A DNA stretch of 47,884 nt from Escherichia phage ZL19: the sequence record OM258170, one strand, 5' to 3'. Below are positions 6,126 through 47,884 of the stretch, one piece after another. Position 1 is the stretch's first letter. Every line of letters starts with the position of its first letter. Under the pieces are notes generated by a model, which saw nothing but the letters and a program-made list of their open reading frames with translations, searched no databases and had not been told where the DNA came from. Made by a program: the position numbers and the translations under genes.

Positions 6126-6632
6126 ATGAGCAAAGCAGCATTAAAGATGGGTGAGGGAAATTTCAAGGCGCTCTACAACAAGAAGTATGGCGACATTGCT
6201 ATGGTGGCAATCAACCGCAAGTACACGCCTGAGGAAGTTTTTGACTTCGCTGTTCGATACTTCTCTTGGGCAGAGAGTGAGGCAATCAAGGCTATTGAGA
6301 CGGCAGCATTCCAGGGGGTTGTTGGTGAAAGCCTCGTACATAAACCGCGAGTATTCACCTTGACGGGGCTTGCGCTCTTCATGGGTGTTAATATCAATAG
6401 ATTCGCTCGCTGGCGCACTGAGGCTGGATACTCTGATGTTATGGAATTCATTGATAACGTAATCTACGAGCAGAAATACCAACTTGGCGTTGCAGGCATT
6501 ATCAACTCCACCATCGTTGGTAAAGAGCTTGGCATTGATAAGCCACAGGAGATTACCATCAGTAATAACTCTACAGCTAACGACGTTGATAGCATGAAGG
6601 AAGCACTGGAATCTGTGATTGGTAAATTATAA
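6126..6632 (+). CDS. terminase small subunit (putative)
   Basis: Directly upstream of TerL; motifs TLTGLALFMGV and GVAGIINSTIVGKELG resemble small-terminase family. Confidence 0.6.
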   Translation: MSKAALKMGEGNFKALYNKKYGDIAMVAINRKYTPEEVFDFAVRYFSWAESEAIKAIETAAFQGVVGESLVHKPRVFTLTGLALFMGVNINRFARWRTEAGYSDVMEFIDNVIYEQKYQLGVAGIINSTIVGKELGIDKPQEITISNNSTANDVDSMKEALESVIGKL

Positions 6633-6651: not shown

Positions 6652-8217
6652 ATGTCTTTAGTATGGGAAGAAATGACCATTCAGGAAAAGATGGCCGTCA
6701 AGGCGATATCAGAACACAGCTTCGAGGGCTTTCTTCGCTGCTGGTTCCAAATCACACAAGGCGAGCGATACATCCCTAACTGGCACCACAAATATCTATG
6801 CCGAATTATCGACGAGATTATAGCAGGGGAGCGAAAGGACACCATCATCAACATAGCGCCGGGTAGTGGAAAGACGGAAATCGCTTCAATTCACTTTCCG
6901 GCCTACTCTATGGTTAAGTTAAAGAAGGTTCGCAACCTTAACATCTCTTTTGCCGACTCACTGGTTAAGCGCAACTCCAAGCGCGTACGTGACCTCATCA
7001 AGTCTCAAGAATTTCAGTCACTCTGGCCATGTAAGTTTGGCACTTGCAAAGACGATGAGCTTCAGGTTCTTGATGAGAGTGGCAAGGTGAGATTTGAGTC
7101 AATCTCGAAAGCGGCTGGTGGTCAGATTACTGGTGCTCGAGGTGGGTACATAACTGAAACATATAGCGGCGCGGTTTTGCTGGATGATTTTGACAAGCCC
7201 GCCGATATGCTATCAGCAGTGTACCGCTCGAATAATCACGTAATGCTAAAGAACACGATTCGCTCACGTCGCGCTAGCTCTGTAAAAGGAAAGGCGACAC
7301 CAATAATTTCGATACAGCAGCGACTGCACGTCAATGACTCAACGTATTTCATGATGGAAGGCGGTATGGGTATCGACTTTGACTTGATTAAGATACCTGC
7401 GCTAGTTACTGAGGATTACATAGATTCGCTTCCTGACTGGATTAAAGAACAGTTTGCGGAAGACGTATTAAGCAGTGAGTGCATTGAGCGAGATGGCGTA
7501 AAGTACTACAGCTACTTTCCTAAAAAGGAGTCAGTAAACGACCTTGTTGCGATGTGGGATAGTGACCCGTACACTTTCCTTAGTCAATATCAGCAGGAAC
7601 CTGTAGCACTAGGTGGAAACCTCATTAATGTGGATTGGTTCCAGCGAATCAGCGATACTTTCAGACCTCCAGCTAAGTATGACTATAGATTCATCACATG
7701 CGATACCGCGATGACTACAAAGAGTTATAGTGACTTCTCTGTGCTTCAACTGTGGGGATATAAGGATGCTAAGATTTACCTTATAGACCAGCGTCGAGGC
7801 AAATGGGAGGCGCCTGAGTTGGAGGCGGAACTACTGGACTTCGAGAGGAAATCAAGGGCAACCAGTCAGGTAGATGGCATCCTACGAAAAATCATCATCG
7901 AGAAGAAATCATCCGGAATCGGACTTATTCAGTCGGCAGGCAGAGTGATGAGAACGCCGATAGAGCCATACGTACCTGATAACGACAAGCTAACCAGGGT
8001 AATGAGCGCACTGCCACAGATTAAGGCTGGCAATGTAGTTCTTCCAGAATCAGCGCCGTGGTTAAGCGGATTGCTCACGGAGATTGCAGCTTTTACGGCA
8101 GATGATAGCCACAAACACGATGACCAAATTGACTGTCTAACAATGGCAGTAAACCTTGTTCTCAATATCGCAGATGATCCTAAGTCCAGATTAATGCGCA
8201 TAGCGGGAATTAAATAG
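6652..8217 (+). CDS. terminase large subunit
   Basis: 521 aa, Walker A APGSGKT, C-terminal nuclease-like region, position before portal. Confidence 0.85.
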   Translation: MSLVWEEMTIQEKMAVKAISEHSFEGFLRCWFQITQGERYIPNWHHKYLCRIIDEIIAGERKDTIINIAPGSGKTEIASIHFPAYSMVKLKKVRNLNISFADSLVKRNSKRVRDLIKSQEFQSLWPCKFGTCKDDELQVLDESGKVRFESISKAAGGQITGARGGYITETYSGAVLLDDFDKPADMLSAVYRSNNHVMLKNTIRSRRASSVKGKATPIISIQQRLHVNDSTYFMMEGGMGIDFDLIKIPALVTEDYIDSLPDWIKEQFAEDVLSSECIERDGVKYYSYFPKKESVNDLVAMWDSDPYTFLSQYQQEPVALGGNLINVDWFQRISDTFRPPAKYDYRFITCDTAMTTKSYSDFSVLQLWGYKDAKIYLIDQRRGKWEAPELEAELLDFERKSRATSQVDGILRKIIIEKKSSGIGLIQSAGRVMRTPIEPYVPDNDKLTRVMSALPQIKAGNVVLPESAPWLSGLLTEIAAFTADDSHKHDDQIDCLTMAVNLVLNIADDPKSRLMRIAGIK

Positions 8218-36604: not shown

Positions 36605-37078
36605 TTACTCTTTAGCTTTTCGTGCTGCCTCGTTGGCGGCCTTAATCTTACGCCATGATCGACACTCTGGCTTGGTGGCTAATTCAGCTTCGGTAACCAC
36701 GCGCAGCATATGACGCTTTTTGCAACGTAGTGTAAGAGGCTTGCCGTTACCGTCGAATTGCAGGTCTGGTCGGCAGAATGTAGCTCGAAAACCTTCTCCG
36801 GTTCGTTTGTAGTAGTTGTGCGACAGCTGAGCACCACGCGCAGAAATCATACCACGATTGAACCATTCTTCTACAGTTTGGGGAGTTACCTTTAACTGCT
36901 TTGCGATGTTTGCCTTTGTTCCGAAGAAATCAAGGAGCATCTCAAGCCGTGCGCGTAACCCTGCCCTTACCTCGTCTTTTAAAACGTAGTAGCCTGAAGG
37001 TCGTTTCCGTTGTTTTTTGTCTTCAGTGCGGATGGTTCCGTTATTACCGTTAGTGGTTCGCTTGTCAACTGCACTCAT
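36605..37078 (-). CDS. HTH DNA-binding protein (putative regulator)
   Basis: Basic protein with helix-turn-helix-like IAKQLKVTPQTVEEWFNRG; ATG with GAGGT RBS; divergent from helicase. Confidence 0.5.
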   Translation of the reverse strand: MSAVDKRTTNGNNGTIRTEDKKQRKRPSGYYVLKDEVRAGLRARLEMLLDFFGTKANIAKQLKVTPQTVEEWFNRGMISARGAQLSHNYYKRTGEGFRATFCRPDLQFDGNGKPLTLRCKKRHMLRVVTEAELATKPECRSWRKIKAANEAARKAKE

Positions 37079-37091
37079 TTTGTTACCTCGA

Positions 37092-37133
37092 TAGCATTTT
37101 TTGTTAAAAGTCATTCTTATTTGATGGTAGTAT
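37092..37133 (+). promoter_or_regulatory. palindrome-type promoter module (variant) for helicase
   Basis: TAGCATTTTTTGTTA 37092-37106, -10 TAGTAT 37128-37133. Confidence 0.45.
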
Positions 37134-44083: not shown

Positions 44084-45667
44084 TCACCCCAACAGTCGTG
44101 GATTAATGTAAACTTTATCACCAATCAGGCACGTATAGTTTTTCTCATCAAGCATTGGCAGTAAGTGATCTTTAATCTTTGTCATTACACCAGCCTGAGC
44201 TTCGAACGGCTTAACCTTACGAGCCGCTTCATATAGAGAACGAATACCCACTACTCCTTTACCGTTCTTGCCTTGCTTAATTAGAATATCAATCAGCTTA
44301 TTCATCTCGGCATTGTCGCCAGCGTGACCAGCGGCGTTTGCAGATGACAGATAAGTCTTGCTAAGTTCATGGAACATAATTACAGCTTCTTGCATGGTGT
44401 CGAGCTCGATCTCTCTGGACTTCTGTGGACTACCGCCATTTGGGTTGAACCAGTTGCGCACAGTGTGAAGAACAGCTGCAATCCTTATGGCCTGCTTATC
44501 GAACTTACCCAACGCGCCACGTAACATTGTGTGTGAATACTTCCCGCCATCTGCAAGGTGAGGCTCCATCTCCTGACGCGCACGGTTGAGGTATTTCATC
44601 GCTGAGTTGCTAACTGTCAATTTCACTTCTTGCTCGTTCATGATCTCGTGAACCAGACGGAAATAGTTAGCCTTCAGCTCACCATCAATTGGCTCGTATG
44701 TTGAGTTGCCATTCTCATCAACGAATACGCGCTCACCAAGGAATGATTTTTCACGAACCAAAAGGAAACGTTCAGATACACCGATACCACGCGCACCAGC
44801 ATTCATGATGGCGTTGATTGTTTCATCCTGCGCAATTACAGAGATGCAACCCATAGCAACGAAACTCATGTTATTTTCTGCGTTGGCACGCGCGATAGAT
44901 ACGTTACCAGCGTCCCACGCTTTCAGTACAAGCTCGCTGTTCGTTTTCTTGGATCCGTCGCCATATGTCATACCAAGTAGTGAGTTCACGCTCGTTGCTT
45001 CATCCGAGATCACGGCAAAGTTACCCTGGCGGTTGTTTATTCGCGCAAGACCTTCAGGTGTGGTATCTGACACGGGGAAAACGATATCGCATAGCTTCTC
45101 GAGCTTCTCCTCTAACTCCTCTTTCTCCTCAAAAAGTGAGGCCATCTCTGATGGTGACTTCTCCTGCTTCATCTCTTTGGATAATGCAGATAGTTTTGCC
45201 ATGATCTTCTTGCGCTCACGCTTTCGCACTTCATTCAGTCGCTCAGTCTCAGCAATCATTGGAGCAATTGAAAGTGAGTTAATGGCTGACTTACCAGTCG
45301 ATGGTGGCTGGCTTGTTACGACGTAAAGCGAAGTCGGTTGCTGGGTTCCATGATACTCTACAGTAAAACGTCCAAGCATCGCCGCAGAAATACATCCCAG
45401 GAAGTGCATATAAGCAGATGACTCAGGGAACTGGACTGAGCGAGCGATGTTAGATGAAAGTTTACCAACAACATCAATGTCATTGCCGAGTGAGATTACG
45501 GGGTACTTGTCATTAGCAGCATCAATCTCGACTGGTGCTTTCCAGAATGATTGAGACTGACGATAGCCATTAGCATTAATAGCGACGCGCAGGGGTGAGA
45601 GGTTGTCTGCGGCAGCAATTGCCATAACCTGTTCAACAGATAGTTTATCTTCGTTGAAATCAAACAT
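44084..45667 (-). CDS. P-loop NTPase of unknown function (possibly DUF3987-like)
   Basis: 527 aa; Walker A SQPPSTGKSA and Walker B VISDEAT; GGAGAGAAG RBS. Confidence 0.6.
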   Translation of the reverse strand: MFDFNEDKLSVEQVMAIAAADNLSPLRVAINANGYRQSQSFWKAPVEIDAANDKYPVISLGNDIDVVGKLSSNIARSVQFPESSAYMHFLGCISAAMLGRFTVEYHGTQQPTSLYVVTSQPPSTGKSAINSLSIAPMIAETERLNEVRKRERKKIMAKLSALSKEMKQEKSPSEMASLFEEKEELEEKLEKLCDIVFPVSDTTPEGLARINNRQGNFAVISDEATSVNSLLGMTYGDGSKKTNSELVLKAWDAGNVSIARANAENNMSFVAMGCISVIAQDETINAIMNAGARGIGVSERFLLVREKSFLGERVFVDENGNSTYEPIDGELKANYFRLVHEIMNEQEVKLTVSNSAMKYLNRARQEMEPHLADGGKYSHTMLRGALGKFDKQAIRIAAVLHTVRNWFNPNGGSPQKSREIELDTMQEAVIMFHELSKTYLSSANAAGHAGDNAEMNKLIDILIKQGKNGKGVVGIRSLYEAARKVKPFEAQAGVMTKIKDHLLPMLDEKNYTCLIGDKVYINPRLLG

Positions 45668-46903: not shown

Positions 46904-47080
46904 TCAAATAAATGGTAAACATTCGGCACAGCCAAGACCATCACAGCACAGTAATTCATCCTCTGACTGGAATTGCCTTGCTAAATCAATGTCCAACTTT
47001 CCGCGCACCACAAGGTCTGTGTAATCTTCGTTAAGCCCAATCAGTGCGCATTCGTGACGCAACTTATCTTTCTTATTCAT
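46904..47080 (-). CDS. small Cys-rich ORF (58 aa)
   Basis: ATG with GAGG RBS; five Cys near C-terminus; below track cutoff. Confidence 0.3.
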   Translation of the reverse strand: MNKKDKLRHECALIGLNEDYTDLVVRGKLDIDLARQFQSEDELLCCDGLGCAECLPFI

Positions 47081-47088
47081 GAATAACC

Positions 47089-47286
47089 TCAGAAGTTACC
47101 AAGTACCAAAGACATTTGCTTGCGTGTCTTGCACTCAGACAGCTTAGCGAACAAAGCCTTAGCTTCAGGGTCATCTGTCTGCTTTACACAGAATGCGCAA
47201 CTTTCTGCGATATCCTTCACACGGCGGCGAGCATCCTTAATTTCCATTGCGATTTCGTTTAAAGTGTTCTTGATTGCGATATCCAT
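47089..47286 (-). CDS. hypothetical protein (65 aa)
   Basis: ATG with GAGGG RBS; first gene of right-arm minus operon. Confidence 0.45.
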   Translation of the reverse strand: MDIAIKNTLNEIAMEIKDARRRVKDIAESCAFCVKQTDDPEAKALFAKLSECKTRKQMSLVLGNF

Positions 47287-47411
47287 TTTATTCCCTCGTC
47301 TCGTTTAAGTTGTTAGAGGTTCGCTTTGATGCCATCGCTGCTTGGGTGGTTATCCTGTTCCTTCAGGAGGCCGCTCGGCTCTTTACTTCCCACCCCGTTC
47401 TCTATGTATTA

Positions 47412-47454
47412 ACTATACTTCTTTTCTTTACTGCTGTTTTAACATTTCGTGCTA
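47412..47454 (-). promoter_or_regulatory. palindrome-type promoter module (minus strand, variant)
   Basis: Motif TAGCACGAAATGTTA on minus strand at 47440-47454, -10 TATAGT at 47412-47417. Confidence 0.45.
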
Positions 47455-47652
47455 TTTAATAACTTTCCACTTCATTTACTTCTTTCGAGGAACCCGGTCA
47501 GACTTTGCTGCCGGAGAAGGTGTCTGGGAGTTTACCTATTCGGAAGTGACTCAACGTGCCCTTTCTCAACACTCGCCAGCATTTTTCATCTGGACGATTC
47601 GACCTCTGGGAGGCAGCTACTTGGCGTTCGCTTCACTGCTTCCTTGAGGTAC
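47455..47652 (-). ncRNA. candidate non-coding transcript between two promoter modules
   Basis: ~200 nt downstream of minus-strand promoter 47653-47695 without an RBS-preceded ORF; speculative. Confidence 0.25.
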
Positions 47653-47695
47653 ATATTACCAGTTTCTTGATTTATGTCTTTAGCAAAAAGTGCTA
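47653..47695 (-). promoter_or_regulatory. palindrome-type promoter module (minus strand)
   Basis: Motif TAGCACTTTTTGCTA on minus strand at 47681-47695, -10 TAATAT at 47653-47658. Confidence 0.45.
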
Positions 47696-47715
47696 TTCGT
47701 CAGATTTATGGATTG

Positions 47716-47796
47716 TTGCAGATATTGCAATGATTTAGATGACTATTGCACATATAGCAATATTTCTTCATATGCAATGATGTTTTTGATTGTTGC
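47716..47796. repeat. cluster of inverted and direct repeats (TTGCA-N5-TGCAA, ATTGC-N7-GCAAT, TGCAATGAT x2, GATTGTTGC x2)
   Basis: Palindromes at 47716-47730 and 47745-47761 plus direct repeats, non-coding, near window end. Confidence 0.6.
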
Positions 47797-47884
47797 GAAA
47801 AGTGAAATGAATTGGGGAGCGAGTGAATGAAAGATTGATGGACTACCATACAAGTTGATTTTGATTCTGGGTGAACCATTTTTG

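Follow-up and report, generated by a model that had tools for sequence, protein, structure and literature searches.

The junction region of the ZL19 genome

The window, that is, the whole stretch of DNA that was analyzed (Escherichia phage ZL19, sequence record OM258170; 47,884 nt), is a complete T1-like genome of the Rtp type within the family Drexlerviridae. BLAST searches with the right end returned T1-like coliphages of this family, and the nearest relatives for the stretch were Rtp, PH1062, and BUCT-XGG-1. In phages DTL and PCEc3, base 47884 runs gaplessly into base 1, and an alignment of 13 genomes continues unbroken across the 47884|1 join. Therefore, the window represents the full, circularly closed genome. 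The initial annotation had suggested extending the sequence beyond 47884; reading on from this position leads directly to base 1, and no sequence is missing.

The point at which the record opens lies inside a gene-free junction of approximately 1.1 kb (47287 to 47884 plus 1 to 408), which separates divergent transcription units. Rfam searches of 47000 to 47884 gave chance-level matches alone, and no IHF, DnaA-box, Fis-like, or GATC motif was found in the junction by a consensus scan. The GC skew follows the direction of transcription and nothing more. No DNA-binding domain was detected with Pfam or PHROGs in the small open reading frames (ORFs) that flank the region. Folding gave no hairpin signal for the repeat array described below as single-stranded DNA (z = -0.2) and no structured-RNA signal for the leader at 47290 to 47650 (z = +0.3). 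GATC sites are scarce throughout the ZL19 genome (75 versus approximately 187 expected from length alone); in TLS, more than 200 Dam-methylated GATC sites have been reported (PMC11447400).

On the right side of the junction, a near-consensus sigma-70 promoter (TTGACT-17-TATGAT, 349 to 377), which differs in type from the box promoters described below, precedes the first rightward gene (409 to 888). The product of this gene belongs to DUF7174/phrog_4841, with no function assigned, and locus retrieval with this protein returned only four close relatives. Positions 1 to 380 hold a repeat family of their own (CGTTACGC, AGTTACGCG, GTGTAACG, GTAAGTCG, CGTTACACG, and GCGTAACGA), which occurs in both orientations around an AT-rich tract at 94 to 146. 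This tract, composed of (AT)n, TTCTTTCT, and (TTA)n, is conserved, and its layout is origin-like. Analogous ATTACGC and CGATTAACA repeats surround the AT tract of T1.

On the left side, a noncoding stretch of approximately 370 bp (47300 to 47674) separates the leftward promoter from the first gene in that direction and is limited to Rtp, PH1062, BUCT-XGG-1, and ZL19. It contains a second leftward box promoter (box at 47440 to 47454, -10 element TATAGTTA at 47410 to 47417) and has neither an Rfam match nor an unusual RNA fold. Farther to the left, 44084 to 45667 (minus strand) encodes a 527-aa DUF3987 protein that is annotated as a putative helicase in relatives; a separate primase/helicase module is located at 35.6 to 39.2 kb.

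A four-unit repeat array

Two perfect palindromes and two repeated 9-mers had been described in the junction, and a direct check of the sequence located all four where they had been placed (Table 1). With a repeat finder and alignment, all four proved to be pieces of one unit of approximately 24 nt, GATTGTTGC-N7-GCAATGAT. Four copies of this unit are present in ZL19, two intact and two decayed, and their centers are spaced 30, 17, and 30 bp apart. The decayed copies (units 2' and 3) had been overlooked in the initial annotation, as had the copy of the promoter box at 47681 to 47695 and the circular closure of the genome.

Table 1. Coordinates of the repeat array and the neighboring features in the ZL19 window
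Feature	Position	Strand	Remarks
Box sites	2914, 3695, 4640, 8215, 16236, 31747, 39593, 40276, 42188	+	
Box sites	28874, 30081, 45726, 46494, 47440, 47681	-	
-10-like hexamer TAATAT	47653..47658	-	Follows the box at exactly 22 nt, the spacing of the other box promoters
Promoter box TAGCACTTTTTGCTA	47681..47695	-	TAGCA-AAAAG-TGCTA; left edge of the conserved block
AGATTTAT	47702..47709	+	GATTTAT core conserved in 12/13 genomes
9-mer GATTGTTGC	47711..47719 and 47788..47796		
9-mer TGCAATGAT	47726..47734 and 47773..47781		
Palindrome TTGCA-GATAT-TGCAA	47716..47730		Perfect
Palindrome ATTGC-ACATATA-GCAAT	47745..47761		Perfect
Unit 1: GATTGTTGC-AGATATT-GCAATGAT	47711..47734		Intact; dyad core 47716..47730
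Unit 2: GACTATTGC-ACATATA-GCAATATT	47741..47764		Intact; dyad core 47746..47760
Unit 2': TTTC-TTCATAT-GCAATGAT	47763..47781		Decayed; TTTC-N7-GCAA at 47763..47777
Unit 3: GATTGTTGC-GAAAAGT-GAAATGAA	47788..47811		Right arm decayed; TTGC-N7-GAAA at 47793..47807
Purine-rich tract, nearly C-free	47812..47837	+	Separates the last unit from the cut zone; GC skew up to +0.81
Putative packaging-initiation cleavage zone	47838..47866	+ (rightward packaging)	Predicted by homology to relatives

Two palindromes with 5-bp arms are by themselves not unusual in AT-rich DNA: at least two perfect 5-N(5-7)-5 palindromes turned up in 13% of the sequences obtained by dinucleotide shuffling of the region (96 nt) and in 5% of the 96-nt windows genome-wide. 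Two dyads with a common 4-nt half-site (TTGC-N7-GCAA) were found in 0.5% of the shuffles, and such dyads jointly with two distinct repeated 9-mers in 0.05% (p ~0.0005). Genome-wide, TTGC-N7-GCAA was seen 5 times (1.5 expected), TGCAATGAT 6 times (0.8 expected), and GATTGTTGC 4 times (0.5 expected). There is one array per genome; the stray matches to the 9-mers and to TTGC-N7-GCAA, including the three copies of the latter outside the ZL19 array, are isolated and lie inside genes. One of them is located in the 5' part of the small-terminase gene terS (6196 to 6210) and is probably a chance match; the residues that it encodes are not conserved in the TerS of T1.

The array also coincides with a direct repeat of different character. 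The plus-strand density of GATT reaches the maximum of the whole genome at 47694 to 47863, with 7 copies in 170 nt and none on the minus strand.

Conservation and coding status of the array

Across the 13 genomes, which represent several subfamilies, column identity at 47680 to 47800 was 0.87 to 1.0, compared with 0.5 to 0.75 in the flanks, making this block the conservation peak of the junction. The arms of the units were more conserved (0.94 to 0.98) than the 7-nt spacers (0.71 to 0.90), which is the signature expected of a protein-binding DNA site. Unit 1 was intact in 11 of the 13 genomes (arm identity, 0.98; spacer identity, 0.89). Unit 2', decayed in ZL19, was an intact TTGC-N7-GCAA in 8 of the 13, and unit 3 was intact in 7; the latter is the counterpart of the last unit, which was found in every array-bearing lineage.

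A location inside a conserved coding region, which would have spoken against the array, was not observed. Two ORFs overlap it, and both are interrupted by stops or frameshifts in relatives: the plus-strand ORF (47690 to 47830) in 9 of 12 and the minus-strand ORF (47706 to 47879) in 7 of 12. The array is thus real, conserved, and noncoding, and the conservation seen in the alignment is the decisive support for the reality of the feature.

The adjacent promoter box

The box at 47681 to 47695 is a copy of the 21-nt repeat of T1 and TLS and is invariant in the relatives. The role of this repeat in TLS and T1 is unsettled, with an enhancer, an UP-like element, and a "stoperator" having been considered (PMC11447400). 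In ZL19, TAGCA-N5-TGCTA occurs 11 times (0.08 expected); approximately 5 near copies were also seen. The element is oriented: TAGCAC-N3-TTGCTA is separated by exactly 22 nt from a -10 element resembling TATAGTTA, after which come a ribosome-binding site and a gene. The genome has 14 to 16 of these box sites. The TTGCTA of the box is 5 bp too far upstream for a -35 element. Because 22 nt separate the box from the -10 element, the center of the box dyad falls near -42, a geometry that we read as resembling that of a class II activator site.

The copy beside the array is itself a box promoter by this definition, with TAATATGT following the box after 22 nt. The leftward promoter begins approximately 20 bp to the left of unit 1. 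The geometric kinship between the palindromes and the promoter box that had been proposed was borne out, with a genuine box 20 bp away and a common form, T[A/T]GC-N7-GC[A/T]A; a second, related specificity of DNA binding, as suggested in the initial annotation, would be conceivable. Units 1 to 3 fall outside the definition of a box promoter: their arms are TTGC, a -10 element is missing at +22, and no gene follows them.

The only clear helix-turn-helix (HTH) regulator of the phage is encoded at 36608 to 37114 (minus strand; phrog_2856), 10 kb from the array. A box-like site (37092 to 37106) lies in the 5' end or untranslated region of its gene, and in IMG/VR relatives, the box is found 14 nt before the ATG of the HTH gene, oriented to drive the divergent helicase gene. 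This layout is autoregulation-like, so the HTH protein is a candidate binder of the box.

Distribution of the array

When IMG/VR was scanned with the exact pattern of one unit, 72 stretches matched. At least two dyads were present in 18 of these, of which 17 were T1-like junctions and 1 was a chance match; the other 54 were isolated matches, nearly all in unrelated contigs. Multi-unit arrays in IMG/VR were confined to T1-like contigs, and they always lay beside a leftward promoter box. Three layouts were distinguished. In Braunvirinae, Rogunavirinae, and Nouzillyvirus, the box is followed after approximately 20 nt by four units. In the T1 group, the distance is approximately 85 nt, followed by two units 30 bp apart, and in a third group of contigs of approximately 52 kb, named group B here, it is approximately 60 nt, followed by two units 31 bp apart. 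All three layouts have a purine-rich tract after the last unit, the equivalent in T1 and group B being G rich.

TLS-type phages keep the box and lack TTGC-N7-GCAA, in place of which GATTG/GATTT runs are found. Strand-biased GATT(G/T) clusters like that of ZL19 occur at the starts of the T1 and TLS records, including those of the dyad-less TLS-type phages.

Complete Escherichia coli genomes contained no copy of 47675 to 47884, so there is no sign of satellites borrowing the signal. A scan of species genomes with the two-unit pattern gave mostly chance matches in unrelated taxa. One match lies in an island of Citrobacter youngae (NZ_GG730299), where the dyads TTGCAATATACGCAA and TTGCAATTTATGCAATGAT are 31 bp apart (6674 to 6721) and are accompanied by GCAATGA. 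These dyads are situated in the apparent promoter region of an ORF of 187 aa with no function assigned, and a P4-like origin region with GAACCAAC iterons and AT-rich DNA (7440 to 7760) is approximately 0.8 kb away. As a single case among many chance matches, it may be a coincidence.

Position of the array relative to packaging starts

T1 is one of the earliest phages in which a pac site was demonstrated along with processive headful packaging. An early study by Ramsay and Ritchie (1983) is cited in PMC8421802. In ZL19, the small-terminase gene (6126 to 6632) encodes a member of PF16677, GP3_package, the P22 gp3 family (E = 5.5e-13; phrog_606), and it is followed by a 521-aa ORF (6652 to 8217) at the position of the large-terminase gene (terL) of an annotated relative. 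By family and gene order, the predicted terminase pair is of the headful type.

An operator array, an origin, and a packaging signal had all been offered for the repeats. Packaging gained support from the relatives, whose starts fall to the right of the array, at 47838 to 47866 and 30 to 60 bp past its last unit; the operator and the origin found no independent support. The start determined for MSK with PhageTerm (36,862, forward strand, p = 1.6e-9; PMC8421802) corresponds to window position 47846. The record of UDF157lw, which was reorganized with PhageTerm and reported as "headful with preferred pac site" (PMC10838988), starts at the equivalent of 47839. For SU57, the boundary maps to 47863|64; this end was the authors' pick among PhageTerm candidates and coincided with an abrupt change in coverage (PMC7718038). 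The record of Rao1, for which no method is given, starts at the equivalent of 47838. The genome of an isolate of the T1 group was opened 34 nt to the right of its last unit.

Other records open within the array. The T1 reference begins inside its first unit, at GATT|GTTGCATGGTGTGCAAC, and its base 1 is also the start of the annotated 2.8-kb terminal-repeat region; the Rtp reference was opened inside unit 2, between 47755 and 47756. Some record starts may follow convention instead of measurement. PhageTerm detected no ends in the T1-like phages OzMSK/7WV, KanT1, and FP, from which we conclude that the cut is weak or lacks precision. Taken across the relatives, the adjacency of the array to a packaging-cut zone is reasonably well supported.

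Earlier proposals for the pac site of these phages had pointed to several elements. The pac site of T1-like phages was placed in this untranslated region, with the site itself not identified for SU57 (PMC7718038); the pac site of T1 and Rtp was linked to ATATA repeats, as relayed in the MSK paper (PMC8421802); and that of TLS was assigned by analogy to P22, on the basis of the likeness of the AGATTTAT motif to P22 pac (PMC11447400).

The array as a candidate pac site

We hold it to be somewhat probable, and the best supported of the readings considered, from the position, conservation, and uniqueness of the array, that it is the recognition part of a T1-like headful pac region for the small terminase of the P22 gp3 family. 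In the mechanism that we propose, the small terminase would bind the approximately four 24-bp units at 47711 to 47811 on concatemeric DNA, and the large terminase would make the first cut 30 to 60 bp to the right, at approximately 47838 to 47866. Packaging would then proceed rightward over the 47884|1 junction, and the subsequent cuts would be set by headful measurement. We infer from homology that ZL19 is cut at the same place as its relatives. TerS is presumably the protein that reads the array, and the sub-motif that it would read is either the TTGC/GCAA dyad or the flanking strand-biased GATT(G/T) direct repeat.

Some observations weigh against this assignment. The TerS of TLS-type phages is approximately 50% identical, yet TTGC-N7-GCAA is absent there and only the GATT repeats are found. 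The array lies 6 kb from terS, whereas P22 pac is within gene 3. In addition, dyad symmetry is commoner for the sites of dimeric HTH regulators than for those of ring-shaped small terminases. The comparison with TLS hints that the GATT repeats may be the common denominator, with the dyads as a lineage-specific layer.

Comparison with known packaging and replication signals

In the SPP1 pac region (pacL, pacC, and pacR), repeated TerS boxes are found next to the first cut, which has a defined position and opens a one-directional headful series; headful packaging is said to be reviewed by Oliveira, Tavares, and Alonso (2013), a paper cited in PMC10838988. The ZL19 region would be similar in having repeated recognition boxes by the cut, part of the signal on the unpackaged side, and a one-directional headful series. 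The two differ in that SPP1 has short direct repeats, located within its terS gene and near it, for a TerS of another family, whereas the ZL19 units are 24-bp repeats containing a dyad that lie between genes, at a distance of 6 kb from terS, and for which binding is predicted. The cosB site of lambda comprises the gpNu1 sites R3, R2, and R1 together with the IHF site I1. It likewise has several TerS repeats, some inverted, within approximately 50 to 150 bp of the terminase cut; however, lambda cos is cut by precise nicks and by a terminase of another family, and the ZL19 junction has no IHF consensus. As a putative pac site, the array is comparable in architecture to SPP1 pacL/pacR or lambda cosB.

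ZL19 shares with P22 the TerS family PF16677 and headful packaging. In contrast to the multi-unit intergenic array, P22 pac is a single asymmetric 22-bp site, GAAGATTTATCTGAAGTCGTTA, inside gene 3. The AGATTTAT motif at 47702 to 47709 matches 8 contiguous bases of P22 pac. A P22-type pac sequence was also considered for ZL19 and rejected: the match at 47700 to 47721 is 11/22, and 418 positions in the genome reach at least 12/22, so the similarity is at chance level.

The 21-nt repeat of T1 and TLS, aaATAGCACnnnTTGnTAAAA (PMC11447400), has the same arm spacing as the units and a half-site one base off, with a copy 20 bp to the left of unit 1. Unlike the TTGC units, which form one array, it is present in many copies, oriented with transcription, and followed by TATAGTTA at exactly 22 nt and then by a gene. 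The origin of lambda (NC_001416) has four 18-bp dyad iterons, and ZL19 likewise has four dyads, at a spacing of 17 to 30 bp; the lambda iterons abut an AT-rich region inside the initiator gene, whereas the AT tract of ZL19 is 170 to 190 bp off and has repeats of its own.

Drexler reportedly described in 1984 that T1 packaging can start between the lambda genes P and Q. The best matches to the unit in the lambda genome had 4 mismatches in 16 positions, and two of the five such matches were within the P-Q interval; these are too weak to be of use.

Alternative readings of the array

The array could instead serve as an operator or enhancer, with a dimeric protein that recognizes a TTGC half-site, one base from the TAGC of the box, binding the dyads. 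The binder would be phage encoded, such as a relative of the HTH protein of 36608 to 37114, or a host factor, and its binding would either alter the activity of the neighboring leftward promoter or sequester the box-binding factor. The location of the units is unfavorable for this role: they lie upstream of the leftward promoter, at approximately -70 to -160 from its start, and thus outside the promoter core. A scan of 47000 to 47884, with nonconsensus promoters outside its reach, found no sigma-70-type promoter, so the label "operator-like" in the initial annotation gains no support from the position of the repeats. Nevertheless, a leftward box is found beside the array in every array-bearing lineage (at -30, -103, or -127 nt), the units share the geometry of the box sites, and conserved arms with variable spacers are the pattern of a dimer site. 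The Citrobacter island, with two similar dyads in an apparent promoter region, agrees with this reading, whereas the TLS-type phages, which have the leftward box and no dyads, do not. Pfam and PHROGs searches found no adjacent regulator gene among the flanking small ORFs, and the clustering of mapped DNA ends beside the array is left unexplained. We therefore regard an operator or enhancer as possible but doubtful.

Another reading takes the units as origin iterons, in which case an initiator would bind the dyads, in the way that lambda O binds its four iterons, and the DNA would open at the AT-rich tract at 94 to 146. The DUF3987 helicase-like protein (44084 to 45667), whose gene is 2 kb to the left, or the primase/helicase module would supply the initiator. 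The presence of four dyads within a long stretch free of genes, from which transcription diverges, and of a conserved AT-rich tract (TTATTATTATTA) is in keeping with an origin. However, 170 to 190 bp separate this tract from the last unit, and the mapped cut zone falls in that interval, so the tract is not adjacent to the units as it would be at an iteron origin. It is flanked by a repeat family of its own (CGTTACRCG/GTGTAACG, in both orientations), which is the better iteron candidate. The lack of DnaA and IHF consensus sites in the junction and a GC skew that tracks only transcription also speak against an origin at the array, which we consider improbable.

It is also conceivable that the site is composite. 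TerS would read the strand-biased GATT(G/T) repeats, which are common to all T1-like pac regions, that of TLS among them, a dimeric factor akin to the box binder would read the TTGC-N7-GCAA dyads, and approximately 100 bp would couple a leftward transcription switch to the licensing of packaging. We see this as a long shot. If it were true, the array would represent a pac site gated by a transcription factor, unlike any pac or cos site characterized so far.

Finally, that the array has no sequence-specific function, being left over from a duplication of the promoter-box region or a set of chance palindromes in AT-rich DNA, is very hard to credit: the frequency of palindromes in the shuffled region and the decay of two of the four units in ZL19 would allow it, but no other part of the junction is as strongly conserved across subfamilies whose flanks have diverged, the unit is kept in four lineages with different surroundings, and same-half-site dyads with repeated 9-mers are rare in shuffled sequence.

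Implications for T1-like phages

As a candidate pac site, the array is concrete and mutable, being a unique conserved element of 100 bp beside independently mapped packaging starts. It offers a principled point for opening and comparing the genome records of Drexlerviridae. If the array is pac, a small terminase of the gp3 family would read a multi-unit intergenic array, as opposed to the single 22-bp intragenic site of P22. The finding could also help to engineer generalized transduction by T1-like phages, or to block it; these phages are common contaminants in laboratories and fermentations.
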